DNA from: Blastocatellia bacterium
GTDB taxonomy: Bacteria > Acidobacteriota > Blastocatellia > UBA7656
Assembly (NCBI GenBank): GCA_035293105.1
Contig: DATDOV010000079.1
Span: forward strand, 101,574-165,573
DNA: 64,000 bases
Direction of reading: 5' to 3'
Part shown: positions 27,931 through 42,045 of the stretch, in pieces
Position numbering within the stretch: the stretch's first letter is position 1
Layout: each line of letters opens with the position of its first letter
Translations under genes and position numbers: made by a program
The notes under the pieces: model-generated
Seen by the model: only the letters and a program-made list of their open reading frames with translations
The model's database searches: none
What the model was told of the DNA's origin: nothing

Positions 27931-28192
27931 ATGCCGGAAATCAGCCGCTTTCTTGGCATCATCATCACGATGTATTTTAACGAGCACAACCCGCCGCATT
28001 TTCATGCACGCTACGGAGAACACAGGGCGGAGATCGCTATTCAAACCCTATCGATCATCGGCGGGAGGTTACCTCCCCGAGTGCTGGGGCTGGTTATGGA
28101 ATGGGCCGCTTTCGCATCGCGACGAACTAATGGAAGACTGGGAATTGGCCCGTCAGCAAACCGAGCTTAGACGGATTGCCCCACTGGAGTAA
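27931..28192 (+). pseudogene. DUF4160 protein with apparent frameshift
   Basis: N-terminus MPEISRFLGIIITMYFNEHNPPHFHARYGEH in one frame; family C-terminus ...HRDELMEDWELARQQTELRRIAPLE is in the +1 frame from about 28105. Confidence 0.55.
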
Positions 28193-28196
28193 ACCA

Positions 28197-28481
28197 ATGT
28201 TCCTTATCGACGTAGTAGATGTTAGGCCACTGGATGGTCATCAGCTTGAGCTAACGTTCAAGGACGGGCTGAAGGCCGTCGTGGATTTAGATCGGGTCAT
28301 TCGATCTTTCGAGGGAGTCTTCGCTCCGCTCAAAGATCCGGAGTATTTTCGACTGGTTCGTGTTGACACGGAGATTGGCACGATTGTCTGGCCCAACGGC
28401 GCTGACTTGTGCCCGGATGTGCTTTATTCCTATGCGTCCGGCAAGCCGATTATCGTGAACGGCGAGCGCGTCCTCAACTGA
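28197..28481 (+). CDS. DUF2442 protein (usual partner of DUF4160)
   Basis: MFLIDVVDVRPLDGHQLELTFKDG... about 95 aa. Confidence 0.6.
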   Translation: MFLIDVVDVRPLDGHQLELTFKDGLKAVVDLDRVIRSFEGVFAPLKDPEYFRLVRVDTEIGTIVWPNGADLCPDVLYSYASGKPIIVNGERVLN

Positions 28482-28874
28482 ATGAATCTGGGGACCTTTC
28501 GAGTGGGTTCGCCTCGCAAACCGGGCGACGGCTTGCGAGTCGGCACAGTGCGCTTTCTGCCGCGCGGAGTGAAGAAAGAAGACTACGCGCGACTGGACTA
28601 CTTCGACGTCTGGTTTCCGTTGCTGGCTCCAAGCTCGGAGCTGCTCAAGTGGCTGAAGAGCCGTGAGTGGCCAAGCGAGCAAGTGCGCTGGTCGAAGTTC
28701 AGAGAGCGCTACGTTGCCGAGATGAACAAGACCGACGCGCGTCAGGCTATCAAGCTTCTGGCAGAGCTAGCCAGAGCTACTTCGGTGAGCATAGGGTGTT
28801 ACTGTGAGGATGAGTCAGCCTGCCATCGCTCGACACTGCGGGCGTTGATAGAACGAGCCGCCATCTTGCCTTGA
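28482..28874 (+). CDS. DUF488 / YeaO-family protein (copy 1 of 3)
   Basis: ...RVGTVRFLPRGVKKEDYARLDYFDVWFPLLAPSSELLKW...GCYCEDESACHR aligns with E. coli YeaO ([36 protein letters not shown]). Confidence 0.75.
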   Translation: MNLGTFRVGSPRKPGDGLRVGTVRFLPRGVKKEDYARLDYFDVWFPLLAPSSELLKWLKSREWPSEQVRWSKFRERYVAEMNKTDARQAIKLLAELARATSVSIGCYCEDESACHRSTLRALIERAAILP

Positions 28875-28917
28875 GGAAGCTGGCCGCATGTCCTCAGCGG
28901 TGTATAATGAGCGAGCT

Positions 28918-29256
28918 ATGACAACCCTAGAGAATACTCAAGCCGTGCCCCTGACAGTCTGGGAAGACGGTTCGATTCGTGTCGCCGGCTCGCGGGTAAC
29001 GCTCGACTCGATTGTATATGAATTCAAGCTCGGCGCCACCGCGGAGCAGATCCTTCACAGCTTTCCGTCAGTTTCGTTGCGCGATATCTACGGCGCGATT
29101 TTCTATTACCTCAACAACACCGAGGTTGTCGAAGAGTACCTTGGTCACCGCGAACGGGGGGCGGAAGAGACGCGGTTGTTCATTGAGAGCCGCTTGGACA
29201 CGAGGTCCCTTCGCGAACGGATCCTGGCCAGGCGTGACCAGATGGTTGGCAGATAA
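28918..29256 (+). CDS. DUF433 protein (antitoxin-like partner of DUF5615)
   Basis: MTTLENTQAVPLTVWEDGSIRVAGSRVTLDSIVYEFKLGATAEQILHSFPSVSLRDIYGAIFYYL. Confidence 0.6.
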   Translation: MTTLENTQAVPLTVWEDGSIRVAGSRVTLDSIVYEFKLGATAEQILHSFPSVSLRDIYGAIFYYLNNTEVVEEYLGHRERGAEETRLFIESRLDTRSLRERILARRDQMVGR

Positions 29257-29286
29257 CGCGCGAGTCCGGCTACGCTTCGTGGCCTT

Positions 29287-29625
29287 CTGTTTGACGAAAA
29301 CTTCAATCATAGAATCGTACATGGGTTGCAATTGCGCCTGCCGGGTCTCGATTTCGTGATTGCTCAGGAAATAGAACTGAAGGGCGCCAAAGACCCGGAG
29401 TTGTTGGAGTGGGCCGCGACGCAGAACCGGGTCGTCGTCACGCATGACGTCGACACATTGTTGAAGTTCGCATACGAACGCATAGTTGGCGGCCAACTGA
29501 TGCCGGGCGTGATAGCCGTCCCACAGATCCTCCCGATAGGGCAAGCGATAGACGATCTGGCAACCGCCATCGAGTGCTCGGAGGCAAGCGATTTGGAGAA
29601 CTCAGTCTTGCACCTGCCTTTGTAA
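29287..29625 (+). CDS. DUF5615 (PIN-like) protein; start codon uncertain or non-canonical
   Basis: In-frame LLFDENFNHRIVHGLQLRLPGLDFVIAQE... begins right after the DUF433 stop. No ATG/GTG upstream; CTG at 29287 or TTG at 29326. Confidence 0.5.
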   Translation: MFDENFNHRIVHGLQLRLPGLDFVIAQEIELKGAKDPELLEWAATQNRVVVTHDVDTLLKFAYERIVGGQLMPGVIAVPQILPIGQAIDDLATAIECSEASDLENSVLHLPL

Positions 29626-29669
29626 CTGAAAGACGCGGGGACTGACTCGGGGCCGGCCTTGGATAAGAT

Positions 29670-29921
29670 ATGAAATACGAACTGTTCACCCGAGTCGCGC
29701 TGAATACCGATCTGCCGCGATACGGACTCCGCAGCGGGGACGTGGCAACGGTCATCGAGCACCATCCCGGACGGCCAGGCCAAGAGCCCGGCTACAGCCT
29801 TGAAGTGTCTAACGCGGTCGGGGAAACGGTCGCCGTGGTCACCGTCCGCGAGTCTCAGATCGTGCCGCTCAATGCCAACGAACCTTTGCATGTCCGCCTG
29901 CTGGCGGAAACGTCCCGCTGA
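29670..29921 (+). CDS. DUF4926 protein
   Basis: MKYELFTRVALNTDLPRYGLRSGDVATVIEHHP... 83 aa. Confidence 0.55.
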   Translation: MKYELFTRVALNTDLPRYGLRSGDVATVIEHHPGRPGQEPGYSLEVSNAVGETVAVVTVRESQIVPLNANEPLHVRLLAETSR

Positions 29922-29977
29922 TCGCTACCCGACGCGAATAGAACAGATGGACCGCGCCCGTCGGGGATCTGTTTAGG

Positions 29978-30382
29978 ATGCCGAGCTCCACGATAAATCT
30001 GGGAACGTTTCGAGTGGGCTCGCCTCGCAAGCGGGGCGAGGGCTTGCGAGTCGGCACAGTGCGCTTTCTGCCGCGCGGAGTGAAGAAAGAAGACTACGCG
30101 CGACTGGACTACTTCGACGTCTGGTTTCCGCTGCTGGCCCCAAGCTCGGAGTTGCTCCGATGGATGAAGAGCCGCGAGTGGCCAACCGAGCAAGTCAGGT
30201 GGTCGAAGTTCAGAGAGCGCTACACTGCCGAGATGAACAAGACCGCCGCCCGCCAGGCGATCAAGCTTCTGGCAGAGTTAGCCAGAGCGACGCCGTTGAG
30301 CATAGGGTGCTACTGCGAGACCGAGTCAGCCTGTCATCGCTCGATACTGCGTGAGTTGATTGAAAACGCGGCAGGCGAGTAG
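29978..30382 (+). CDS. DUF488 / YeaO-family protein (copy 2 of 3)
   Basis: About 90% nt identity to 28482-28874 over the whole gene. Confidence 0.75.
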   Translation: MPSSTINLGTFRVGSPRKRGEGLRVGTVRFLPRGVKKEDYARLDYFDVWFPLLAPSSELLRWMKSREWPTEQVRWSKFRERYTAEMNKTAARQAIKLLAELARATPLSIGCYCETESACHRSILRELIENAAGE

Positions 30383-30452
30383 GAGGGCTAGCCGTGCCGA
30401 TGAAGTCGCGGTTCAAGCGATGATATATCTGGACCATAACGAAGCAACTCGA

Positions 30453-30896
30453 TCATTTCACGTCGGCCGGAGAGACGGCAGTGATTCCTGGATAGCGCTT
30501 GAAGTCGGCTACGTTGAATGTAAGCAGATGCGTGATGCCATACACATTCATCGAAGCGACAAGCTTGGCATCGTGAACCTCAACGCCCATCACCGAGTGA
30601 GTTACAACAAGCCGCCGCCATTCCTGGAAGGTCGCTAGACTGTCCGGGAGCAAACGAAAGTAGCGTTCAATCAGACGCGCTTTTCGTTCTGTTTGAGTCA
30701 ATGAAAGGCTGAGCCCGCCGCGCGCCGAAGCCGGACGAGTACCGACGTTCCAGAACTCGCTCAGGACCTGTGGAGTGAAACAAAGAACTTCATTTCGCGA
30801 GCGGAGCCTTCGCAGAGCATCAAGAGCCATTTGGCGCTGCGGATCGTTGCGGTGGGCCAGCCGGAGAAACAGATTCGTATCGAAAAGATAGGCCAT
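30453..30896 (-). CDS. vapC: PIN-domain toxin (VapC-like)
   Basis: MAYLFDTNLFLRLAHRNDP... acidic PIN residues (D5, E, D, N/D). Confidence 0.75.
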   Translation of the reverse strand: MAYLFDTNLFLRLAHRNDPQRQMALDALRRLRSRNEVLCFTPQVLSEFWNVGTRPASARGGLSLSLTQTERKARLIERYFRLLPDSLATFQEWRRLVVTHSVMGVEVHDAKLVASMNVYGITHLLTFNVADFKRYPGITAVSPADVK

Positions 30897-31159
30897 CAGT
30901 CGTGGTCGAAGTAGATGTCGGCGCGCGAATAGCTCCCGGAGTAAGCTGGCAGATGCTCCGTTCCTTCGGCAAACGCTTGCATGTCCGCTTCAAACTCAGC
31001 GTCGTTCGCGGGAGCGGGCGCTGATAATTCATCAACTGATCGGGTTGCGCTGGCTTGCACAAGGCTCTCGACAAAGGACTTCACATCCAGGCCATACGCC
31101 TTAGCCCTTTGTTCCAAAATGTGTCTCACGTCTTCGGGAACTGAAATCGTTAATTCCAT
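30896..31159 (-). CDS. VapB-like antitoxin
   Basis: 87-aa ORF whose stop overlaps the vapC start. MELTISVPEDVRHILEQRAKAYGLDVKSFVESLV. Confidence 0.55.
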   Translation of the reverse strand: MELTISVPEDVRHILEQRAKAYGLDVKSFVESLVQASATRSVDELSAPAPANDAEFEADMQAFAEGTEHLPAYSGSYSRADIYFDHD

Positions 31160-31398
31160 TCGCGACTCTCTATCCGTTTCTCGATCCAGATTCCAAGTCC
31201 ACGTCTGTATCTATGAGTAGCGCATTGCTGTCGCGCCAGGATCTCCTTACTCATACAACGCGCCTCTTAGATTGGCAGCAGTATAGCACTCCGGTGACTA
31301 GCTGATAAGAGAGTACGATCAGACGCGTGCGCGTCACGATTTTGCGCGAGAAGGGAGGGACTGCTTGACCGTCGCAAAAAGTGCGTCACCCCAGAGTA

Positions 31399-31588
31399 TC
31401 TCATTAACACCTCACTTCAGTGAGGTGCCCTCGACCGAGCGGATCCCCCAACCGTTTCAACGGTTTCCTCTCTCGCAGTCGTCTTTCAAACTCGAAGTCT
31501 TCGGATTCCATGAGCGCAAACCGTTAAAACGGTTCAGGGGATCCGCCGAGCCAAGAGCACCTCACTGAAGTGAGGTGTTAATGAGAAC
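31399..31588. mobile_element. ~190-bp near-perfect palindromic MITE-like element
   Basis: Left end tctcattaacacctcacttcagtgaggtg and right end cacctcactgaagtgaggtgttaatgaga are reverse complements. Each end is itself a hairpin. Inner nested inverted repeats (gatcccccaaccgtttcaacggtt / aaccgttaaaacggttcaggggatcc). Confidence 0.6.
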
Positions 31589-31733
31589 CGATGTTCCCGC
31601 GAGCCTTGACGTCCCAGTTTTGATCACATCCCCAAACCGTGACGCGCACCCCGATCAGACGGCTCGGCCACGCAACCAAGTAGATGTTCGTAGTACCGGC
31701 TTCAGATGAAATCATGGCCTTGGCGTCGGCATA

Positions 31734-32048
31734 GTGCGCTTTCTGCCGCGCGGAGTGAAGAAAGAAGACTACGCGCGACTGGACTACTTCGACGTCTGGT
31801 TTCCGCTGCTGGCCCCAAGCGCTGAGTTGCTCACTTGGCTGAAGAGCCGCGAGTGGCCGAGCGAGCAAGTCAGATGGTCGAAGTTCAAAGAGCGCTACGT
31901 TGCCGAGATGAACAAGACCGACGCGCGGCAGGCTATCAAGCTTCTGGCCGAGTTAGCCAGAGCTACTCCGTTGAGCATAGGGTGTTACTGCGAGAACGAG
32001 TCAGCCTGTCATCGCTCTATGCTGCGTGAGTTGATCGAAGAGCCCTGA
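31734..32048 (+). pseudogene. DUF488 / YeaO-family protein (copy 3), 5'-truncated
   Basis: Homology to copies 1 and 2 starts at codon ~25 (RFLPRGVKKEDYARLDYFDVWFPLL...). First ~25 codons are replaced by unrelated sequence next to the palindromic element. Confidence 0.6.
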
Positions 32049-32136
32049 AGCTTTAGTGGGTCGTAGGATTGGTCCGACGCTTTCGCGATAATCTGCGATT
32101 TGAAGCAATCGAAAACTTGGGATAGGCTTACGTCCC

Positions 32137-33057
32137 ATGAAAAGCCTTGGTTCAGCCGGCAGCCTACCTTTGTTTGATGAATCTGCAGACGGCAACCCTC
32201 TTGAACATCAATCCGAGAAGCCCGAAAAGACTTCGCCCTTTAGCGACCTTGATCTGAATCGCTGGCGCGAATATGAAGACATCGTTACCGACTCGCTGTG
32301 GCTCATACCAGAACGGGACCGGACTGGCGCGCATCTCGCGGACTATCACGGAAACTTTGTTCCTCAAATCCCCTATCAGGCGATGCGGCGGTTTACGAAA
32401 CGCGGAGATGTTGTGCTCGACGCATTCTTGGGTTCCGGCACGACCCTCATCGAATGTCGCAGACTAGGGCGACACGGAATCGGCGTTGAGCTTAAGCCAG
32501 AGCTTGCAAAGCAAGCAGCCGACCGTATCGCGAGCCAAGGCAATCGCTACCAGGTCAAGACAGAGGTGCTGACGTCAGATAGTTGTGATCCCGTAAAGAC
32601 TCCTGGAGTCATTTCGCAGAGTCTTGAAACCATCGGCAAGGATTCAGTGCAGCTTGCAATACTTCATCCTCCGTATCATTCAATAATTAGGTTCTCTGAT
32701 CGTGCGGATGATCTGTCTAATTGCCCTACGGTTGACGTGTTTCAAAAAACGTTTGGCCGAGCGGTTGATGTAGTGACTCCATTCCTCGACATAGGCCGCT
32801 ATCTGGTCTTGGTCATCGGTGATATGTATGCTGGCAGCGAATGGATTCCTCTTGGATTTCGGTGCATGAACGAGATAATGGAGCGCGGGTACACTCTGAA
32901 GAGCATCGTCGTTAAAGATATGCAAGGAAATCGGGCTAAACGAAATCTGGAGAACATCTGGCGCTATCGCGCGCTAGTCGGCGGCTTCTACATCTTCAAG
33001 CACGAGTACGTCATGTTTTTCAGGAAGGGCAGAACGAATGGCCGAACTGCCATTTAG
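32137..33057 (+). CDS. N6-adenine or N4-cytosine DNA methyltransferase (R-M)
   Basis: Motif I VVLDAFLGSGTT; motif IV LHPPY (D/N/S-PP-Y variant). Confidence 0.8.
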   Translation: MKSLGSAGSLPLFDESADGNPLEHQSEKPEKTSPFSDLDLNRWREYEDIVTDSLWLIPERDRTGAHLADYHGNFVPQIPYQAMRRFTKRGDVVLDAFLGSGTTLIECRRLGRHGIGVELKPELAKQAADRIASQGNRYQVKTEVLTSDSCDPVKTPGVISQSLETIGKDSVQLAILHPPYHSIIRFSDRADDLSNCPTVDVFQKTFGRAVDVVTPFLDIGRYLVLVIGDMYAGSEWIPLGFRCMNEIMERGYTLKSIVVKDMQGNRAKRNLENIWRYRALVGGFYIFKHEYVMFFRKGRTNGRTAI

Positions 33058-33685
33058 TCAAGGCTCAAAGCTCCGTCAGACCTTTCAAATCCTCGCAGAT
33101 GGTAACTGGCATTGCGGCAAACATGAGTTGCCAGGAACGCAGCCTGCGAAGGCGATTCAGATCATCAGGCAGACCGGATACGAAGTAGAGAACAGGACGC
33201 AGCATTGCAATCGTTGCGACGAACGGACTGTCCACCGACGACTCGTTTCGACCAGCCCGTCGGCGAGCTCAGTGGCCCGGTCGGCGTTGCCGGAAAAGCT
33301 CAAGGGGCGTGTGAAGACGCTGTTCAAGAACATCGAGGCCATCACACAAAGAACCTACGAACCGAATCAGCTGGAGGTGGACCACCGTTTTCCGCAAGTA
33401 AGGTGGTCGAGCCCGGAGGCGATGAATGATCCGAACATGTCGGATGCTGATATCACTGCAAAGTTCCAGCTCCTTACACGGCAGCACAATCTATGGAAGA
33501 GTCGGTATTGTGAGGCATGTTTGAAAACTGGGCGTCGTGGGACCTATATCGGGATTGAGTACTTCTACGAAGGCGGCTTGATGTGGCCAGAGGACATTCA
33601 TCCAGACGACGAACGCGGCTGCATTGGTTGCTTTTGGTATGACCCTGAGAAATGGCGCCAGAGCCTGAACCAGCTTGTAAGCTAA
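33038..33685 (+). CDS. putative type II restriction endonuclease partner
   Basis: Overlaps MTase 3' end by 20 nt. Cys-rich (CGKH...CNRCDE...CEAC...CIGC) with an EVDHRFP HNH-like element. Confidence 0.45.
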   Translation: MAELPFSQGSKLRQTFQILADGNWHCGKHELPGTQPAKAIQIIRQTGYEVENRTQHCNRCDERTVHRRLVSTSPSASSVARSALPEKLKGRVKTLFKNIEAITQRTYEPNQLEVDHRFPQVRWSSPEAMNDPNMSDADITAKFQLLTRQHNLWKSRYCEACLKTGRRGTYIGIEYFYEGGLMWPEDIHPDDERGCIGCFWYDPEKWRQSLNQLVS

Positions 33686-33727
33686 CCTGCGCGGCCATCG
33701 GTGAAAGAGTACGAAACCCAAACCTGG

Positions 33728-34510
33728 TTATCCGAGGTCGCCGGGACGTACAGTCACTATAGTGAGAACGCGGTTGTAGTATGGCAATAGTATGGAGTCT
33801 TCCCACACCTTCCCAAAAACGTGTCCGGCTAGCCATGCCTCTGCACGTACGGCTCCGTCTTGCTCGCGCTCTTCCGTCGGGCGGAAGAGGTTGCTCGCGA
33901 GGGACTCGACGCTGACTTCAGTACCTTTGCGCTTGATGTAATGCTGGAATTGAGGGCCGGGTCTCCACCATTCAATTATCCCGCTGTCACTAACCACCAA
34001 AGCGCATTGTTCCTCAGTGACGTCGACGCACTTGACAGTAGCTGCGGTTAGCGAGGTCTGAAATTTCGCACTTATCTTTTTCGCGACCACCACGGTTGCT
34101 GACTCTTGTCGAACGATAGTGGCTGCTTGTGCCGATGGAATTAGCAATTCTGACGCGAACCGATTCGCGTCAATCTCGTGTTCTGGTGCGCCGCGGCTCC
34201 ACGATTCGACGTCGCGACTCTTACAAACGCAATCTAGCTCTCCGTGCCCCGGTAGAATGTAATGGCCGAGTTCGTGAGCGATCGTGAATCTCTTCCGGCC
34301 AGGCTCACGTATGGTCGCCTTAACAGCGACGATACCTGTCGGTTTGTTAGGAATACGAACCAACGCGCCTTCGAAACCCTCTGACTCGACCTCGCAAATC
34401 TCCAACCCGATTCTGTCCGCAAGCTCAGATAGATCGGGCGTCGTCGATATCTTGAATCGCCTTAAGAGCGCGCGAGCGAAGTCTTCAGGTTGTGCTGGTG
34501 TCCGATTCAC
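33728..34510 (-). CDS. ImmA/IrrE-family metallo-endopeptidase (COG2856, CapP-like)
   Basis: HEXXH (IAHELGHYIL) followed by EIDANRFASELLIP, the family signature E-x-N-x-F-A-x-x-L-L. Confidence 0.75.
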   Translation of the reverse strand: MNRTPAQPEDFARALLRRFKISTTPDLSELADRIGLEICEVESEGFEGALVRIPNKPTGIVAVKATIREPGRKRFTIAHELGHYILPGHGELDCVCKSRDVESWSRGAPEHEIDANRFASELLIPSAQAATIVRQESATVVVAKKISAKFQTSLTAATVKCVDVTEEQCALVVSDSGIIEWWRPGPQFQHYIKRKGTEVSVESLASNLFRPTEEREQDGAVRAEAWLAGHVFGKVWEDSILLPYYNRVLTIVTVRPGDLG

Positions 34511-34959
34511 TCTGACCCCGTATCGCCCTCGTCAAGCTTGCTTTTCAGCGAATCGAGGATTTCTTTGTCCTTGGAGGAGACCTTCTCGCCAAGCTTACGA
34601 CCGCGTAGCGAGGATACGGCCTCAGCGCCGGCAGAGGGCAGAGTCCCGCTCAACAGGTTAGCTAAGTAGCAGTCGGGGTCAACACCAGCAGACTCCGACT
34701 TCTTCTCTTCTGCACGCCGCAGATTCCTCAGAGCGTTCTCCACTGGGACCGGCACACTTTTGCTTTTCGACCTGAGTTCACGCACTCCAGCTTCGACTCT
34801 TGACATCAGCTTGGAAACCAGATCAGATGAATCAACACCACAAGCCTTAAGCACATCCTTGGCAGTTTCAAGATCAATCTCTTCGTCAGGCCCTAGTAAC
34901 GCCTCGAAGAGTTCATCTTCTTCGGTCTTTGGAAGTGGCTGGGTTCTTTTGTTAGGCAT
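34507..34959 (-). CDS. acidic low-complexity protein (candidate anti-sigma / peptidase substrate)
   Basis: 150 aa, highly charged. Translationally coupled on both sides: 14-nt gap to the upstream gene, 4-nt overlap with ImmA. Confidence 0.4.
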   Translation of the reverse strand: MPNKRTQPLPKTEEDELFEALLGPDEEIDLETAKDVLKACGVDSSDLVSKLMSRVEAGVRELRSKSKSVPVPVENALRNLRRAEEKKSESAGVDPDCYLANLLSGTLPSAGAEAVSSLRGRKLGEKVSSKDKEILDSLKSKLDEGDTGSE

Positions 34960-34973
34960 ACGCGGCCACCTTT

Positions 34974-35561
34974 CTAGTTACCCTTCTGCCGATACTTCAT
35001 CGATCCGGCACGGCGCCAGCCGGTAAGTCTCGTTCTCACTCTCCGCTGGCGGCCCCTCAGTTGCTGAGCGGTTATACCGAGGAACTCTGCAATTTCCTTT
35101 GGCTTTGCTGGCCACAACTCCAGAACCGCCTCAACATAATCCTCCAGTTCTTTCTCCCCTTTTACAAGAGCGTAGATTCTCGCCTTTGTGAGGGCATCGT
35201 GCTCAGCGTTCCCAAGGTCGTCCTCAAAGGCGTCGATTACCCTGAGAGCCTTCTCATGCTTTAGCGAGTCCAGAACGGTACTCCTCTTATACCCGCTGTG
35301 TTTCGTCACTATGTCCAGGAAATCACGCGTCATGACAGTCAGGAGCAACGGATATGGGTCTTCATCGTGTGTCTTGGGCCGCCATTCTACGCCTCTTTGG
35401 AATATGAAGGCTTCAACTGTCTCAACAGCAAAGTCTTCAGCGGATTTCCCAGACCCCGGTAGAACTGATAGCCCTTGACGGACGAATAGCCCTTCGGCAG
35501 CGGCATACAACCGACTTAGCAGGCCTTCCAGATCGACATTCGCGAAGCGTGAATCGTCCAT
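34974..35561 (-). CDS. divergent sigma-70-family (ECF-like) protein
   Basis: Region-2-like SAEDFAVETVEAFIFQR...DPYPLLLTVMTRDFLDIV and region-4-like HTH EIAEFLGITAQQLRGRQRRVRTRL. Confidence 0.45.
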   Translation of the reverse strand: MDDSRFANVDLEGLLSRLYAAAEGLFVRQGLSVLPGSGKSAEDFAVETVEAFIFQRGVEWRPKTHDEDPYPLLLTVMTRDFLDIVTKHSGYKRSTVLDSLKHEKALRVIDAFEDDLGNAEHDALTKARIYALVKGEKELEDYVEAVLELWPAKPKEIAEFLGITAQQLRGRQRRVRTRLTGWRRAGSMKYRQKGN

Positions 35562-35820
35562 TCCGGGACCTCTTCATTCTTAAAGCGAGTCAGGGTCTAG
35601 GAACTGGCAAGAAATCTGTCATCAAGAAATTTTTCTGCCAGTTTTAGCCGACACAGTCGCTTAGACAGTGGAGGTTGGCACCGGCCGATTAGCCGTCATC
35701 TAACAAGAGGCATGCTAACCCACGGAAAGGGCTAAGAGGAAGATCAACCAGACACGGACGATCTGCTTGGACGATCTGCTTGGCCACGACAGCAACCGAA
35801 CCTGAAGGGAGTTATCAACA
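35562..35820. promoter_or_regulatory. divergent control region between sigma/ImmA operon and Ubl operon
   Basis: Inverted repeat AACTGGCAAGAAAT-N13-ATTTTTCTGCCAGTT. GGAACT -35-like element. Tandem 14-mer gacgatctgcttgg x2. Confidence 0.45.
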
Positions 35821-36852
35821 ATGAGCAACAAAACCGATTCAACGGCTGTTGACGATCTCGTCGACGGCCAGTGGCTTGAAGATATCGATGCGGCGCTGCC
35901 TCAGGCGGTCGCCGAGGCCACAGTAGATGGACGGCTGCCCGCGAAAGCTCAACACCTGAAAGTTCAGGTTGGGTTTCGCGAATTGCCGGACGGGCACGAG
36001 GTCAAGTTCAAGGCCTCACTTACGAATACACTGCTGGAAGTGTTCGAATGGGCAGCGCAGGAACTCGGGAAACCTCTACTACCTCCCGCCAGCAACCAGC
36101 CGCTCGATCTATTGCGCTGTCGGGAGCGACACGGCGACGGCTGGAGCGAGCCTATCACAGGCCTCGACCGGCCGCTCTGGCTCGTGTTGGTTGAAAGCTG
36201 CTCTCGACATTTCGGAATCGAATATGTGCTGGCTGTTAAGATCAACACGAAGTGGGCCGTAGCACCGTCCGCAAAAATGACGCCGCGCGAGCTGCTCACT
36301 AGCTTTGGGTTTGATCCCTCTCAATTCAGCCTGTACAAGCCCGATAGCACGGAGCCGCTGCCGGCGGACACGCCGATCCCTCTTCATCGAGGAGAGAGGT
36401 TTGAAGCGCAGAAGGACGGGAAGTATGGAGCGTCGGTGATGGCAGAGCGTCCGGCGCGCGGCTCACAGACGATCGACGATGATCTGGAAGGAATAAGGGA
36501 GGCGGGTATCGACGCCCGCCTCCTCGACTCCAACGGACAAAAGTACGCCGAGGTGAAGGGAATAGCGGTACCGTCGCCTCCTTGGTCTCTGGACAGGCTC
36601 ACACTGCTGTTCGCTATTCCGGCTACGTACCCGACAGGCGGGCTCGACGCGTTCTACATCGAGTTGCCCGTTAGCCACGCTAGCGGTTCCGTTCCGTACC
36701 AATCTCAGACCGCGCAGATCGATGGCAGATCGTGGGGGCTGATCTCATGGCACTATCCGACCGGGCGGCCCTGGAACCCGTCGCATGACGATCTTTCTAC
36801 TCATATCGAGCATTGTCGTGGAGCATTGATGAGGCGTGGGGTGACGCAGTGA
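35821..36852 (+). CDS. multi-ubiquitin (tandem beta-grasp) domains fused to prokaryotic E2-like (UBC-fold) domain
   Basis: Two Ub-like repeats (HLKVQVGFRELPDGHEVKFKASLTNTLLEVFEWAAQELG; LAVKINTKWAVAPSAKMTPRELLTSFGFDPSQFSLYKPDS...IPLHRGERFEA). C-terminal E2-like region (...LLFAIPATYPTGGLDAFYIELPV...ISWHYPTGRPWNPSHDDL...). Confidence 0.55.
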   Translation: MSNKTDSTAVDDLVDGQWLEDIDAALPQAVAEATVDGRLPAKAQHLKVQVGFRELPDGHEVKFKASLTNTLLEVFEWAAQELGKPLLPPASNQPLDLLRCRERHGDGWSEPITGLDRPLWLVLVESCSRHFGIEYVLAVKINTKWAVAPSAKMTPRELLTSFGFDPSQFSLYKPDSTEPLPADTPIPLHRGERFEAQKDGKYGASVMAERPARGSQTIDDDLEGIREAGIDARLLDSNGQKYAEVKGIAVPSPPWSLDRLTLLFAIPATYPTGGLDAFYIELPVSHASGSVPYQSQTAQIDGRSWGLISWHYPTGRPWNPSHDDLSTHIEHCRGALMRRGVTQ

Positions 36853-36854
36853 AA

Positions 36855-38246
36855 ATGCGAATGACCGAACACCACTACCATGAGGTAAAGCGACTTACGT
36901 CTCCTTCCTTCTTGGATGGCATCCGGTTTCCTCCCGAGACAGGTTGCATCGTTTTAGTCGGGCGGAATAATCATCCAACGTATCCGTCAGTCGTAGTGGC
37001 CGATGTGCTGGCGCCCGAGGACGGAGAGTTGATTGAGCGAGAGAGTGATGGTCTCGTCTTCGCGAGCAAGTATTTGCGGCGCGCTCTGTTTCGATTGCGT
37101 GAGAAAGGGCTGGCGGGCTTCCTCACAGTCCACACCCACCCGTTCTCGGACACGCGTGTGAACTTTTCTCCCTATGATGACGCGAATGATCCCTCGCTGA
37201 TGGCAAATCTGTACGAGCTTGAGCCCCACGGCATTTTCGGCAGCATCGTGATGGGCAAAAGATCGGCGAGAGCTCGATTGTGGAATCCGGACGGAGATGG
37301 CTACCGCACACTCGAACCGATGATCATCGTCGGTGAGCGACTGCAATTCTTCAACGCTAATGGTGCCGAGGCCGAGGCGGAACCACAGGCAGCGGAGATC
37401 TTCGACCGCGGCTTGTCGATCACAGGTAGCGGCGCGTTAGCGCGACTCGCCTGCATGCGTGTTGGTCTGATCGGCAGCAGCGGAACCGGCTCTATTATGG
37501 CCGAATTGCTGATGCGCGCCGGTGTTGGCGAGATACTGCTTTTTGAGCCTGACTATGTGGAAGAACCCAACCTGAACCGGATGCTCCATTCCCGGCAGCG
37601 CGACGCGGAAGCTCGTGTAGGAAAGGCGTCCCGGCTGGCTGAAGCTCTTGCCGAGGCTGGTATGCCCACTCAGATCACGGTCGCCTCGGGCGGTGACATA
37701 CGCCGCGAGGAGGTAGCACTTGAGCTACGAGGTTGCGATTTGGTGATTGGTTGTGTTGATCGAGACTGGCCGCGCCTAATACTTTGCGAACTAGCTTATC
37801 AATACTTGATTCCGTACATAGACCTGGGAACAGAGATCGGTTTCGATGGGATTGAGATTCAGAGCCTCGATTCTCGCGTTTCGTATGTTGCGCCTGGTCG
37901 TCCTTGTCTTCTGTGTTCTGGCGTGGTGTCAACCGAGCGCCTTAGGCTGGAAGCACTAGAAGACAGCGAGCGAGACAGAGTTATCGCAATGGGTTACTCG
38001 GAAGACATTAGGCTCATCGCGCCTGCGGTCATGGATCTAAACATGCGCGCTGCCTCTTATGCGATGCTCGTTGTACGTCATCTCCTCCAGCCGTTCCTCG
38101 ATAGGCCGCTGCCGACTCATATCAAAGAATCAATCACTAACTTCAGTGTTCGACGAGTGACCAGTACCCAGAATTCGGACTGTCACGTCTGTGATGGTTC
38201 GAGGCTTGGAGTCGGAGACGCGCGCCGTTTGTCCACGGCTCGTTGA
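36855..38246 (+). CDS. JAB/MPN metalloprotease domain fused to E1-like ThiF/MoeB adenylyltransferase
   Basis: N-terminal JAMM-like motif LAGFLTVHTHPFSD...S..D. C-terminal Rossmann GLIGSSGTGSIMAELLMRAGVGEILLFEPDYVEEPNLNRM with CLLCSG and CHVCDG zinc pairs. Start immediately after the upstream stop. Confidence 0.7.
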   Translation: MRMTEHHYHEVKRLTSPSFLDGIRFPPETGCIVLVGRNNHPTYPSVVVADVLAPEDGELIERESDGLVFASKYLRRALFRLREKGLAGFLTVHTHPFSDTRVNFSPYDDANDPSLMANLYELEPHGIFGSIVMGKRSARARLWNPDGDGYRTLEPMIIVGERLQFFNANGAEAEAEPQAAEIFDRGLSITGSGALARLACMRVGLIGSSGTGSIMAELLMRAGVGEILLFEPDYVEEPNLNRMLHSRQRDAEARVGKASRLAEALAEAGMPTQITVASGGDIRREEVALELRGCDLVIGCVDRDWPRLILCELAYQYLIPYIDLGTEIGFDGIEIQSLDSRVSYVAPGRPCLLCSGVVSTERLRLEALEDSERDRVIAMGYSEDIRLIAPAVMDLNMRAASYAMLVVRHLLQPFLDRPLPTHIKESITNFSVRRVTSTQNSDCHVCDGSRLGVGDARRLSTAR

Positions 38247-38719
38247 TCGTTCTGACTGACTGGAACGCCAATCTTGGGCACGCAGACACGCCGCCGCCAT
38301 ACCCTTTGATCATCCTAATCCAGAACCCAGACGCCGCTTTCGCGAATTGCATCGTACATCGCGTCTGGTGCAAGATCACCACCGTTCGGCCACTGCACCA
38401 CACCCATAACCACTCGCGCTCCGGCAAATACGGCGGCTCGCGTAGCGGCTCGAACACTGTGCCGTCGATCTCAGAGCTGCTGAGAAACGCTCGCATATCT
38501 ACGTTCCCCGGCGTGCCATCGCCGAATCTTACGTGCAATTCCGGGAACGCAAAGACGCGAGAATCTCTAAGATCGCCAAGTGTGCTACCGCTTCAGTCCG
38601 TCACTAGAGGCTCGCGGCGGATTGTTCAGACATAGCCTACAACCAGAGAGACATCTCTCTTCGATTCGCGCTTCTATTCCTACCTTTGTGTTACAATCTC
38701 GCGAAAGGAGCGGAGCCAA

Positions 38720-38953
38720 ATCATTTCCGAGCAAGCCGAGAAAATCCTCGAACAGGCTTTGCAGTTGCCTTCCTCGCAACGCGCAGACCTGGTCGAGCGT
38801 TTGTTGGACAGTCTTGCGTTCGAAACTGACGAACGCATCGATGCGCTGTGGGCTGCCGAGGCCGAGAGTCGCATAGCTGCTTTTCGCCGGGGCGAGTTGT
38901 CGGCGGTACCGTCAGAAGACGTCTTTGCTGAGATCGAAGCGGAGGCTAATTGA
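38720..38953 (+). CDS. addiction-module antitoxin; probable non-ATG (ATC/ATT) start
   Basis: IISEQAEKILEQALQLPSSQRADLVERLLDSLAFETDERIDALWAAE... AAGGAG sits 9 nt upstream of ATC at 38720. First canonical start is an internal TTG at 38759. Confidence 0.5.
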   Translation: MISEQAEKILEQALQLPSSQRADLVERLLDSLAFETDERIDALWAAEAESRIAAFRRGELSAVPSEDVFAEIEAEAN

Positions 38954-39240
38954 AGGTTCAATTCCTCGAACCGGCCAAAGCCGAGTTGAAGGAAGCAGTC
39001 CGCTACTACAACCACCAGAGAGAAGGTCTCGGGCTCGAATTCGCCGCTGAAGTCAGAAAGGCAACTCAGCGAATCGCGAAGCTGCCGAAGGCCTCGCCAC
39101 CAATCTCAGGTGGCGCTAGAAGGTTTCTTCTTCGCAGGTTCCCTTACGGAATCATTTTATCTGGTCGAAGACAAAACGGTGCTTATTGTTGCTGTAATGC
39201 ATCTAGCGCGCGATCCTGTAGTCTGGCAGGAACGGCTGAA
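38950..39240 (+). pseudogene. RelE/ParE-family toxin with +1 frameshift
   Basis: KVQFLEPAKAELKEAVRYYNHQ...RRFLLRRFPYGI, then the conserved tail IYLVEDKTVLIVAVMHLARDPVVWQERLK is in another frame (shift at a T-run near 39160). Confidence 0.6.
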
Positions 39241-39412
39241 GTGACTCGATTATCGTGGCTAGGCTCCGCACCCGCCTCACGATCGAGCTTCCAGTCAAGG
39301 CTAGCGCTCAAAGGCACGGTCGTGGGCCGACTGCTTTGGTTCATGTGGTTCGTCCAACTCCGTGTAGCCACACAGAGCCGAGTCGAGTATACTCGCCAGC
39401 AAGGAGTAGGTC

Positions 39413-39664
39413 ATGACAACGATGTTTCCCATACCTCCGCCGGGGTTTGACCAGCTTTCAGTAGACGAGCAGATCCACTTCGTCGAGTCGCTGTGGGACC
39501 GAATCGCAGTGCATGCCGAACGGGTGCCGGTTCCCGACTGGCATCGCCACGTGCTCGCCGAAAGACTCGCCGCGTATGAGAGCGATCCCGACGCAGGTAA
39601 GCCGTGGGAGGAGGTCCGGGACGAACTCCAGCGAGAACTCCGAGACATTGATCGCCGGAAATGA
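39413..39664 (+). CDS. addiction-module antitoxin
   Basis: MTTMFPIPPPGFDQLSVDEQIHFVESLWDRIAV...DWHRHVLAERLAAYESDP. Confidence 0.6.
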   Translation: MTTMFPIPPPGFDQLSVDEQIHFVESLWDRIAVHAERVPVPDWHRHVLAERLAAYESDPDAGKPWEEVRDELQRELRDIDRRK

Positions 39665-39946
39665 CCAAACAGCGCGTGATCATCCGGCCCGAGGCGCAGC
39701 AGGACCTCCGCGAGGCGGCGCTGTGGTATGAGACTCCCAGGCCGGGCCTCGGAGAGCGTTTCGCAACCAAGATCGAGGGGTTGATCGAGCGAATAGCCGA
39801 CAAAGCCTCGCCAATTCCCTGAGATCGCCCACGGAGTCCGCCGGGCTTGGCTACAGGCATTTCCGTATTCGGTTTACTTCGTCGAATCTCCCGGCACCGT
39901 TTCGCTCATCGCCATTCTTCACCAGCATCGCCACCCCGATACCTGA
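39661..39946 (+). pseudogene. RelE/ParE-family toxin with frameshift
   Basis: MTKQRVIIRPEAQQDLREAALWYE... stops after ...ASPIP. Conserved tail QFPEIAHGVRRAWLQAFPYSVYFVESPGTVSLIAILHQHRHP continues in another frame. Confidence 0.55.
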
Positions 39947-40074
39947 AGCAAATAGACGATCATTATTCACTGGTTGAAACTGGTTGATTATCCACTGACC
40001 CTGGCAGATAATCCGCCACTTGACCGGTGCATGAGAAGCTAGAGGCAGACCGACGTTGCTCTAAACTAGGGGAT

Positions 40075-41088
40075 ATGGAAAACGAACCGCTGGGGCATTC
40101 TGAGATCATCCTCTACCAAACCGAGGACAAGCGTACTCGGATCGAGGTCAGGCTTGAGGACGAGACTGTCTGGCTCAGTCAAAGCCAGATGGCCGAGTTG
40201 TTCCAGACCACCAAACAAAACATCAGCCTCCACGTTAGGAACATCTTCGCTGAGCACGAATTGCAGGAGGACCAAGTTGTCAAGGAATACTTGACGACTG
40301 CAGCCGACGGCAAGAAATACGCAACCGGCCACTACAACCTCGATGTCATCATCTCCGTAGGTTATCGCGTCAAGTCCCACCGCGGCACTCAGTTCCGCAT
40401 CTGGGCGACTCAACGCCTGAGGGAGTACCTGATCAAAGGCTTCGCGCTGGACGATGAGCGGCTCAAAGAAGGCGGCACGAAGAACACTTACTTCGATGAA
40501 CTGCTGGCCCGGATCAGGGACATCCGCGCCTCCGAGAAGAACTTCTACCGCAAGGTCCTGGACATCTACGCGACAAGCATCGACTACGACCTACACTCGG
40601 ATGTCTCTTACGACTTCTTTGCGATCGTTCAAAACAAGATGCACTGGGCGGCGCACGGCCACACCGCAGCCGAGTTGATCGCCGAACGGGCCGACGCCGA
40701 TAAGCCCAATATGGGATTAACCTCCTGGAAAGACCCGAAGGTGCGAAAGTCGGACGTGACCGTCGCAAAGAACTACCTCAACGCCGACGAGATCGAAATC
40801 CTGAATCTGATCGTGAGTCAGTACCTGGACTTCGCCGAGCTTCAGGCCAGAATGAAGAAGGCGATGTACATGCGCGACTGGGTGCGCAAGCTGGACGATT
40901 TTCTGAGAGTGAATGAGCGGGAAATATTGAAGGACGCAGGTAAGATCTCGCATCAGCTTGCTCAGCAGTTGGCCGAAGCTGAGTACGACAAGTTCGAAAA
41001 GAAGCGGTTGGCGGCGGAATCCGAAGCCCCTAACAAGGACTTCGAGGAAGCGGTGAAGACACTCACCTCGCGAAAGCGGAAGAGGTAG
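40075..41088 (+). CDS. RhuM-family (Fic/DOC-related) virulence/defence-associated protein
   Basis: MENEPLGHSEIILYQTEDKRTRIEVRLEDETVWLSQSQMAELFQTTKQNISLHVRNIF... characteristic RhuM N-terminus. Confidence 0.8.
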   Translation: MENEPLGHSEIILYQTEDKRTRIEVRLEDETVWLSQSQMAELFQTTKQNISLHVRNIFAEHELQEDQVVKEYLTTAADGKKYATGHYNLDVIISVGYRVKSHRGTQFRIWATQRLREYLIKGFALDDERLKEGGTKNTYFDELLARIRDIRASEKNFYRKVLDIYATSIDYDLHSDVSYDFFAIVQNKMHWAAHGHTAAELIAERADADKPNMGLTSWKDPKVRKSDVTVAKNYLNADEIEILNLIVSQYLDFAELQARMKKAMYMRDWVRKLDDFLRVNEREILKDAGKISHQLAQQLAEAEYDKFEKKRLAAESEAPNKDFEEAVKTLTSRKRKR

Positions 41089-41384
41089 GCGACACACGCA
41101 CCGATCCGTGCGGCTGCCGGAGTTTGCTGTGAGCTCGCGTGCGGCTGTTTGTTGTCCAATCACTGGTCGCGTCCCGGTCGAGACTGCAACAAGAATGGAT
41201 AGAATTGCGATTGCCCCGGCGCGTCGATGAATTCTGACCGCGCTCGATGTCTTACGCAAAGTTGCGGTTGTTGCGCCAGCCATTCCCGGCCTCCTTAGGT
41301 GGCTACCCTGCCACACTATACACGGACGCAAAACCGGGGCATTTCAATGCATATTCTTTTCGAATCGTACGCGAGAGGGCTTAG

Positions 41385-41717
41385 TTATGAAGTCAAACCG
41401 CGAGGACTCATAGTAGTCCTCGATAGTCTCGTGCGCCGTGAATGATCCGATGAACGAAGATCGTTTGCTCCTCGCAAGTGTAAAAAGATCAGGTAATCCT
41501 GAACGACCAAATAGCGATAACCGAGATCAACCAGCGACGCATCACCAGATACGCGTCCCAGGTATGGGTTCAACGCCAACAGCCTCAGGTTCTTCTCGAT
41601 TCTCTGCGCAAGTGCTTCGGCGGCTTCCGGTCTTTGAGCCGCAATGTAGGTGACGATCTCAGTGAAGTCGTCCTCCGCTGCCCTCAAGAGCCGGACCGTG
41701 TGCTTACGCCGCTTCAC
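41385..41717 (-). pseudogene. RelE/ParE-family toxin with frameshift at a T5 run
   Basis: ...LGYRYLVVQDYLIF then the frame drifts. The +1 frame gives the canonical YTCEEQTIFVHRIIHGARDY tail. Confidence 0.6.
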
Positions 41718-41976
41718 GGATTCTCTTTCGCAGATCTTTCATCACTTGTGAGACCGTCCGGCCTCGGTCGCCACATGCTCGCTGAGCTTGCGCCACCGCT
41801 AGCTTGCTGAAGAGTTCGACTTTGAGTTGAAGCTTGCTGTAATGAGCCATCGACATAACAACCATGTCGCCCTCACCGTTCCTCGTGATGAAGATCGGCT
41901 CATCGATAGTCTCGGCTAGATCAGAGATCTGGTTCGCTTTGTTCCGCAAGTCGGAAATGGGTTTTATGACGGGCAT
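41704..41976 (-). CDS. Phd/YefM-family antitoxin
   Basis: MPVIKPISDLRNKANQISDLAETIDEPIFITRNGEGDMVVMSMAHYSKL. Confidence 0.7.
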   Translation of the reverse strand: MPVIKPISDLRNKANQISDLAETIDEPIFITRNGEGDMVVMSMAHYSKLQLKVELFSKLAVAQAQRACGDRGRTVSQVMKDLRKRIREAA

Positions 41977-42045
41977 CTTCAATCTCCTTCTACCGCGCTG
42001 CAAAATTATATCACTTAAAGATAAAGGAAAGGGGCCAAGGCGATT

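Follow-up and report, generated by a model that had tools for sequence, protein, structure and literature searches.

The 64,000-nt stretch of a Blastocatellia bacterium genome analysed here (contig DATDOV010000079.1, positions 101,574 to 165,573; the window in what follows) holds a ubiquitin-like (Ubl) conjugation operon of the Bub type together with a small regulatory module. The locus consists of a two-gene Type I Bub operon (bubAB-bubCD, without BubE) beside a divergent three-gene control module, which probably encodes an extracytoplasmic function (ECF)-type sigma factor, a cleavable anti-sigma partner and the peptidase CapP. We propose that the sigma factor is held by the 150-aa product of the middle gene, is freed by CapP activated by single-stranded DNA (ssDNA), and transcribes both its own operon and bubAB-bubCD, after which conjugation would follow the published oxyester route; we give this reading a probability of about 0.55. 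What is established here is the gene content, the homologies, and the conservation of both the cassette and the promoter-like architecture. The Bub pair and CapP are already known; the new elements are the absence of BubE and the proposed wiring through a sigma/anti-sigma-like pair at matched divergent promoters. The features of the locus are the following, in window coordinates.

33728..34510, minus strand: capP (PADLOC capP 1.6e-55, Pfam Peptidase_M78 4.9e-15)
34507..34959, minus strand: gene for the 150-aa acidic helical protein, a putative CapP-cleavable anti-sigma (alignment, AlphaFold2 (AF2) model, fusions of its N-domain to M78)
34974..35561, minus strand: gene for the 195-aa protein, a probable divergent ECF-type sigma factor (sigma2-like at about 40-92, variable linker, sigma4-like helix-turn-helix (HTH) at about 126-190)
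35582..35610, minus strand: promoter-like element facing the sigma operon, TTGCCAG-N16-CGCTTT (kept at all orthologous loci)
35635..35663, plus strand: promoter-like element facing bubAB, CTGCCAG-N16-CGCTTA (pattern extraction from orthologous intergenic regions)
35756..35781, plus strand: tandem 13-nt repeat, GGACGATCTGCTT twice, within the bubAB leader (lineage-specific, probably incidental)
35821..36852, plus strand: bubAB (Prok-E2_E 3.4e-11; Citrobacter BubB, 9eae, 0.0013-0.005)
36849..38246, plus strand: bubCD, a fusion of JAB/JAMM peptidase and ThiF-type E1 (Citrobacter BubCD, 9ea4, 4.6e-37; ThiF 2.9e-18; start taken from orthologues)

All five open reading frames (ORFs) are present at the coordinates given in the initial annotation of this DNA, and the layout that it described stands. 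The co-occurrence of the triad and the Ubl pair in other genomes was looked for and found: the complete five-gene cassette recurs, amid unrelated flanks, in L001-L004, L005/L006, L010, L013/L014 and L015 (L001-L028 are labels of the related loci compared with the window). That the triad and the Bub pair are neighbours by chance is ruled out by the conservation of the cassette between flanks that are unrelated. The module formed by the triad is conserved and portable.

The control module and its promoter-like sites

The initial annotation saw in the 195-aa protein a divergent sigma-70/ECF-like protein with regions 2 and 4, which holds at the level of the family and not for single-protein searches with the window protein. 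Its close relatives form only 12 clusters, some of which carry the JGI name 'sigma24 family', and an exhaustive HMMER search gave 186 representatives. A 103-member profile of the family matches solved ECF sigma factors at profile positions of about 44-193, with RpoE (5.4e-6) and SigH (1.4e-5) leading and SigL, SigE, CnrH and SigJ next, across sigma2-sigma4. Individual members match Pfam Sigma70_r2 (n=15), Sigma70_r4_2 (n=7) and Sigma70_ECF (n=4), and relatives match TIGR02937, one of them exceeding the cut-off. At the family-profile level both sigma2 and sigma4 are homologous to known ECF sigma factors, as expected of ECF (group 4) members. The sigma4 region has a net charge of +9, and the linker between sigma2 and sigma4 is variable, poorly modelled and without a conserved motif. 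Relatives were absent from the first genome-collection scan, and tblastn with the window protein gave no match in plasmids. We infer that the 195-aa protein is a member of a divergent ECF-sigma family and would act as a sigma factor. Sigma factors of this group bind the RNA polymerase core and start transcription at a cognate -35/-10 promoter, as a rule also at their own.

The second protein of the module had been described as 150 aa long and highly charged, and it has an isoelectric point (pI) of 4.95 with 36% charged residues; its N-domain (residues 13-65, approximately) carries a net charge of -8. Its gene sits between the sigma and peptidase genes throughout and is translationally coupled. 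The protein gave no match in Pfam, PADLOC or NCBIfam and none among PDB sequences at E<=0.1, and no DNA-binding domain was detected in it with these four. Likewise, the N-terminal XRE HTH of the CapH type was not found, no significant sequence match to the C-terminal domain of CapH or DdrO was obtained, and there was no similarity to the class I anti-sigma domain (a four-helix domain, often with the Zn motif HxxxCxxC). What is conserved is the motif SL-RGRK at residues 117-122 (SF-RNRS in the L018 counterpart), followed by a conserved amphipathic helix, DKEILDSLKSKL. In the AF2 model, which is all-helical and of low confidence (predicted local distance difference test score, pLDDT, 56), the motif lies at the end of a predicted helix at 112-118, and a helix at 129-145 then follows. 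SL-RGRK resembles the site at which IrrE cuts DdrO, between Leu and Arg of EL-RGKR (PMC4374696). CapP cuts CapH between F82 and R83; the C-terminal domain of CapH has two helices, the first of which holds this site and the second of which docks on CapP (10.1101/2022.04.27.489752; PMC13228613). The 150-aa protein looks like a CapP substrate and not like a repressor, and it would bind the sigma factor and be cleaved. In L016, L017, L019-L021 and L022 the N-domain occurs as a fusion with an M78 peptidase. The close relatives form eight clusters, and an identical protein is on record from a metagenome-assembled genome of Blastocatellia (Acidobacteriota).

The third gene was annotated from the start as an ImmA/IrrE, CapP-like HEXXH metallopeptidase, an assignment with which the two profile matches listed above agree. 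The PADLOC match is full length (residues 7-253 on profile positions 4-240/242), and the protein has the M78 HExxH domain (HELGH, residues 79-83), the linker and the C-terminal GAF-type domain of CapP. Cys96, 17 residues past the first His, has the same offset as Cys113, the cysteine switch of Thauera CapP, and is a putative cysteine switch here. The GTG start of capP overlaps the stop of the upstream 150-aa gene by 4 nt. By analogy, this CapP would be activated by ssDNA and would cut the adjacent partner protein.

Between the two operons lies the expected 259-bp control region with its inverted repeat (arms 35602-35614 and 35631-35643), which is best read as two divergent promoters predicted to be sigma-dependent. 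Alignment of the orthologous intergenic regions and pattern extraction gave [CT]TGCCAG-N16-CGCT[AT][AT] on each strand. On the sigma side, 20 nt separate the end of the -10 box from the ATG of the sigma gene, and on the other side a leader of about 155 nt lies between the element and bubAB. The YTGCCAG-N16-CGCTWW pattern has no match in the 64-kb window other than these two sites, even with one mismatch allowed (0.54 expected), and each fetched orthologous locus likewise contains solely these two. Within the sites the spacing is fixed at 16 nt, and the distance between the sites varies from 20 to 30 nt among orthologues, which argues against a single dimer operator. Distant clades share the divergent layout with other -35 boxes, namely ACGTAAA (L016/L017), TCG[TG][AC]AA (L023) and CGGCAAG (L024), and the -10 box ATCGC[TA] is kept across them; 0-22 of 5000 shuffles equalled the observed match. 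No sigma-70-type promoter match was found in the intergenic region.

Read in the Bub direction, the bubAB leader (35664-35820) contains the blocks ATGTTAGC and GGAAGGTTAC, both conserved among orthologues. An extra layer of control in the leader is possible because these blocks match no Rfam family; none was found in 33-39 kb. The tandem repeat had been noted as a 14-mer: the repeat exists, and its unit is 13 nt. All orthologous intergenic regions have a 16-nt gap at the GGACGATCTGCTT repeat, which probably makes it a recent slippage event, and as a regulatory element it is ruled out, being absent from all orthologous loci.

The proposed circuit and its alternatives

Sigma activity, binding of the 150-aa protein to sigma, cleavage by CapP, an ssDNA trigger and an anti-phage role of Bub make up the proposed circuit. 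The 195-aa protein would be a dedicated ECF-type sigma factor that recognizes the two near-identical divergent YTGCCAG-N16-CGCTWW promoters, one driving its own operon and the other bubAB. In an unstressed cell the 150-aa protein would keep it inactive, with the acidic N-terminal helical domain as the anti-sigma module. CapP activated by ssDNA would cut this protein at or near the bond between Leu118 and Arg119 (in SL-RGRK), and the freed sigma factor would raise transcription of bubAB-bubCD and also, as a positive feedback, of its own operon. BubCD would next cleave BubAB after Gly203 through its JAB domain, and the E1 domain would adenylate BubA, to be transferred via Tyr346 and BubB Ser309 oxyesters to target lysines. 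The initial annotation had already suggested that a sigma factor with a cleavable anti-sigma takes the place of the HTH repressor; this idea fits the ECF family, the motif, the promoter-like sites and the co-occurrence of the genes, and it is deduced from sequence.

Several observations weigh against the proposed circuit. Searched alone, the 195-aa protein of the window had no match in Pfam, PADLOC or NCBIfam and reached no sigma hidden Markov model (HMM), its close-family profile gave noise and no sigma factor among PDB sequences, and its sigma4 half is modelled at pLDDT <50. Only the 103-member profile, and not the close-family one, gave significant ECF sigma matches; hhalign against a single, approximate sequence of E. 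coli RpoE was weak (E=0.056, region 4.2 only). The cleavage-like motif of the 150-aa protein is not strictly kept, as L023 has AF-HNL and L024 FL-KAAR. As for the promoters, the pattern was counted in the same sequences from which it was derived, and the shuffle control on the distant clades kept mononucleotide content only. Palindromic sites can also be operators of a dimeric repressor, and no clear second site was found in L018 and L022.

It is unlikely, in our judgement, that the 150-aa protein is an analogue of CapH that binds DNA through a fold other than HTH (ribbon-helix-helix, for example) and sits as a repressor on the palindromic sites until CapP cleavage de-represses them, with the sigma-like protein as an extra activator that gives promoter specificity. 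Its gene does occupy the exact position of capH, a 'capH' is listed by Lau et al. for systems with the entry 'Sigma-70 present', the sites form inverted repeats, and the C-terminal cleavage motif with its helix resembles the C-terminal domains of CapH and DdrO. However, no DNA-binding family was detected in the protein at any threshold, and the region of its putative strand and first helix is strongly acidic (net charge -8). The CTGCCAG arms are 20-30 nt apart, yet each arm is fixed 16 nt from CGCTWW, and the N-domain persists as a peptidase fusion, in which dimeric operator binding is harder to picture. The likeness of residues 29-69 to CcdA, a ribbon-helix-helix protein, is weak and not significant (E=0.83) and is kept solely as a lead for this explanation.

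The fusions of the N-domain to M78 peptidases point to an intimate link with the peptidase, and the variable, poorly modelled sigma2-sigma4 linker could be exposed to proteases, so that CapP might act on the sigma-like protein itself, activating or destroying it, with the 150-aa protein as an adaptor or peptidase inhibitor. Yet the sole conserved [LF]-[RKH] motif like the IrrE/CapP sites is in the 150-aa protein, the sigma linker has no such motif, and in L026 an N-domain that by eye is 150-aa-like accompanies a sigma-like gene with no M78 peptidase; we regard action on the sigma-like protein as very unlikely. Nor do we expect that the sigma-like protein has ceased to be a sigma factor and is instead a repressor acting through its sigma4 HTH, or a PhyR-like decoy, while the host RNA polymerase holoenzyme transcribes Bub. 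This would be hard to reconcile with the family-level alignment of both sigma2 and sigma4 with bona fide ECF sigma factors and with bipartite conserved sites that have a promoter-like 16-nt spacing and a -10 box ending 20-22 nt before the start codon. Moreover, the -35-like box differs among clades while the -10-like box is kept, and the intergenic region has no housekeeping-type promoter match, which leaves this explanation with little probability.

If the sigma-release circuit is true, it would be self-reinforcing and orthogonal to the host, and, as the target operon would need its private sigma factor to be expressed at all, leakage would be very low. CapH+CapP, CapW and CapK+CapS all act by removal of a repressor, and a CapP-gated sigma/anti-sigma pair would be a different wiring of DNA-damage or phage sensing. 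It would also extend the substrates of ImmA/IrrE-type peptidases past HTH repressors, explain the unexamined 'Sigma-70 present' systems in the catalogue of CBASS (cyclic oligonucleotide-based antiphage signalling systems), and provide synthetic biology with compact parts (sigma, anti-sigma, protease and promoter).

The Bub conjugation genes

The initial annotation took the Ubl-E2/JAB-E1 pair for a poorly characterised class. It is Type I Bub (formerly 6E.1), which comprises BubAB (a Ubl-E2 fusion), BubCD (a JAB-E1 fusion) and BubE (the DUF6527 serine protease) and has published structures and biochemistry (10.1101/2024.11.21.623953, Ye et al.). The E2-like domain is confirmed by the Prok-E2_E match of BubAB (3.4e-11 at residues 220-336), and the C-terminus also matches Citrobacter BubB (9eae, 0.0013-0.005). 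Asp276 and Ser309-Trp-His311 are invariant in the orthologues, as in the E2 of Type I Bub, where Ser-x-His and Asp replace Cys. The putative Ubl, BubA, corresponds to residues 1-203 and ends in a conserved boundary, KDG[KR]YG-AS with the predicted cut after G203, which fits a JAB processing site. In Type I Bub, BubA consists of 1-3 beta-grasp (Multi_ubiq) domains and has Gly as its last residue where JAB cleaves. The further claim of tandem beta-grasp (multi-ubiquitin) domains found no support in HMM searches, as the Multi_ubiq HMM had no match in residues 1-203 or in 91 relatives, and hhalign of BubAB against Multi_ubiq proteins was weak (E=0.21, residues 142-195). Because the HMM match is lacking, multi-ubiquitin can stand only as a presumptive label for BubAB. 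At L013 (4364-5416), the last ~30 residues of BubAB are wholly unlike those of the orthologues, which suggests a frameshift or assembly error.

In BubCD, the ThiF/MoeB E1 of the initial annotation is clear (ThiF 2.9e-18), and its JAB domain, sub-threshold with Pfam Prok-JAB (0.006), is recovered by alignment to Citrobacter BubCD (PDB 9ea4, 4.6e-37 over residues 54-420, both domains). In that alignment HTHP...SPYD is conserved and SRVSYV stands opposite GRIDYV. Key positions are Glu30, His95/His97 and Asp110, the loop GSSGTGS (209-215) and Tyr346, which lies in the SRVSYV crossover-loop motif; the protein has an N-terminal JAB/JAMM domain, a ThiF-type E1 and a crossover-loop Tyr, with no catalytic Cys. 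Its start is most likely GTG 36849 (465 aa) and not TTG 36813, because the orthologues point there.

BubE is described as present in all Bub operons, in a catalogue seeded on DUF6527 (10.1101/2024.11.21.623953), which BubE-less variants would escape. A custom BubE HMM gave no match at E<=10 in the six-frame translation of the whole window, the ORFs downstream of bubCD (38247-38760) had no Pfam match, and PF20137 (BubE) is not annotated in L001, L005, L010, L013 or L015. L018 and L024 do carry it. As BubE has been described as universal, a two-gene variant without it bears on the minimal Bub pathway.

Related loci, known systems and the surrounding island

Among more distant relatives, the sigma-like gene again precedes a homologue of the 150-aa gene and an M78 peptidase gene, with partner operons that differ (L018, L023, L024). 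In L018 the triad flanks a canonical Type II Bub (Multi_ubiq, DUF6791-ThiF, DUF6527), and in L024 an unfused Type I Bub with BubE. In L023 (2636-12505) its divergent neighbour is an operon of a Peptidase_C14 (caspase)-DEAD helicase fusion and HNH, followed by a 1539-aa protein without a Pfam match. We tentatively extend the proposed circuit, at slightly less than even odds, to some 200 clusters of highly divergent ECF-like sigma factors that would serve mobile operons for defence or stress (Bub of Types I and II, the caspase-helicase system and a PurA-like/DUF7002 system). Each sigma factor would be gated by a small cytosolic anti-sigma, and its release by the ssDNA-activated CapP/IrrE-type peptidase would turn on immunity genes at matched divergent promoters. 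With the same reservation, a sigma-binding domain may replace the HTH of CapH in these systems, making the circuit positive, orthogonal and self-amplifying. The sensor module appears interchangeable, being a stand-alone peptidase, a fused peptidase or a non-peptidase partner.

A conserved operon in L016 (6974-11655), L019 (4394-10524) and L022 (6001-10645) is led by the sigma-like gene and a fusion of the 150-aa N-domain, an M78 peptidase and a Macro-like C-terminus; the next genes encode a P-loop kinase/adenylosuccinate-synthetase-like protein, DUF7002 and sometimes Metallophos. The fusion gene is upstream of the kinase/adenylosuccinate-synthetase-like and DUF7002 genes in L016, L017, L019-L021 and L022, and in L019-L021 a DUF1508/YegP gene is transcribed divergently from the operon. 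The operon has the look of a defence or stress system that is as yet uncharacterised.

At two plasmid loci, L026 and L028, a sigma-like gene is beside Bub without an M78 peptidase, and the second gene of each encodes a protein whose ends, by eye, resemble those of the 150-aa protein. L026 (2544-3763) is on the Abditibacteriota plasmid AP024153.1 and has a 204-aa protein and a PcrA helicase as its partners. L028 (1613-4119) is on the Mesorhizobium plasmid NZ_AP023255.1, with partners of 131 and 478 aa (family unassigned), and its sigma-like gene carries the PGAP label 'hypothetical protein'. The partner genes at these loci may encode sensor modules of another kind. Jumps in the IMG gene numbers (Bub Table S1) were considered as a proxy for hidden sigma genes and dropped because the extra Rhizobium phaseoli gene encodes a DUF2188 protein in a co-directional capH-capP arrangement.

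Protease cleavage of the anti-sigma factors RseA, RsiW and RsiV frees the sigma factor, whose operon is auto-regulated. Those cascades use membrane site-1 and site-2 proteases and class I anti-sigma domains, whereas here a single cut by a cytosolic M78 peptidase is proposed, in a partner without class I anti-sigma likeness. A precedent in defence is the Myxococcus CBASS-CRISPR island, which is controlled by the ECF sigma/anti-sigma pair DdvS/DdvA (PMC11506125). As in the pair predicted here, a dedicated ECF sigma/anti-sigma pair stands over defence operons; DdvA, however, is transmembrane, and the candidate anti-sigma here is small, cytosolic and paired with a soluble, presumably ssDNA-responsive metallopeptidase. 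In the literature searched, no paper ties an ImmA/IrrE/CapP peptidase to anti-sigma cleavage.

A close relative of the module is CapH+CapP, which is found in 31% of catalogued Bub operons (10.1101/2024.11.21.623953). Lau et al. 2022 noted, without analysis, 24 CBASS systems with capH and capP beside a sigma-70-family gene, given in their Table S1 as 'Sigma-70 present' with the order CD-NTase, x, capH, capP (10.1101/2022.04.27.489752). Common to CapH+CapP and the present module are the CapP-type M78 peptidase with a GAF-type C-terminus and a Cys at the switch offset, the peptidase gene beside and divergent from a defence-type operon, and a partner gene directly upstream and translationally coupled. 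The partner in both has a hydrophobic-basic motif followed by a C-terminal helix, which for the 150-aa protein is a predicted one, and fusions of the (here putative) substrate to the peptidase are known in both. In contrast to CapH, the partner here has no HTH or other detectable DNA-binding domain, a third gene (ECF-type sigma) is constant, the cis elements look like two sigma-dependent promoters and not one operator, and the proposed logic is activation by sigma release instead of de-repression.

IrrE(PprI)/DdrO of Deinococcus (PMC4374696, PMC10904395) is similar in its M78/COG2856 peptidase, which is activated by ssDNA in Deinococcus, and in the resemblance of EL-RGKR to SL-RGRK. It differs in that DdrO is an XRE-family HTH repressor of a chromosomal regulon, whereas the partner here lacks an HTH and the apparent regulon is limited to two local operons. 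With the Citrobacter Type I Bub (10.1101/2024.11.21.623953) the locus shares the Ubl-E2 and JAB-E1 fusions, BubCD being homologous over both domains, the Ser-x-His and Asp of BubB, the crossover-loop Tyr, the JAMM residues and the CapP association. Unlike it, BubE/DUF6527 was not found in the window or in the five orthologous loci, and the BubAB N-terminus is not recognized by the Multi_ubiq HMM. The sigma-containing triad stands in place of the Bub regulators CapH+CapP, CapW or CapK+CapS.

The locus is situated in an island of restriction-modification (R-M), toxin-antitoxin and RhuM genes, as had been pointed out earlier, and a dip in GC content accompanies it (0.53-0.57 across 28000-42000 of the window vs 0.61-0.63 in the flanks). 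The island contains an N6/N4 methyltransferase with an ICEA-like endonuclease, Unstab_antitox/ParE modules (pairs of this kind are at 38759-39664), several DUF488 genes and RhuM (40027-41088). The R-M pair (N6_N4_Mtase and the ICEA-like endonuclease; 32137-33685, plus strand) is convergent with capP, whose stop at 33728 is separated from it by 43 nt. It recalls CapK+CapS, for which R-M adjacency has been reported (PMC13373217). At L010, a homologous methyltransferase is also found 3' of capP.

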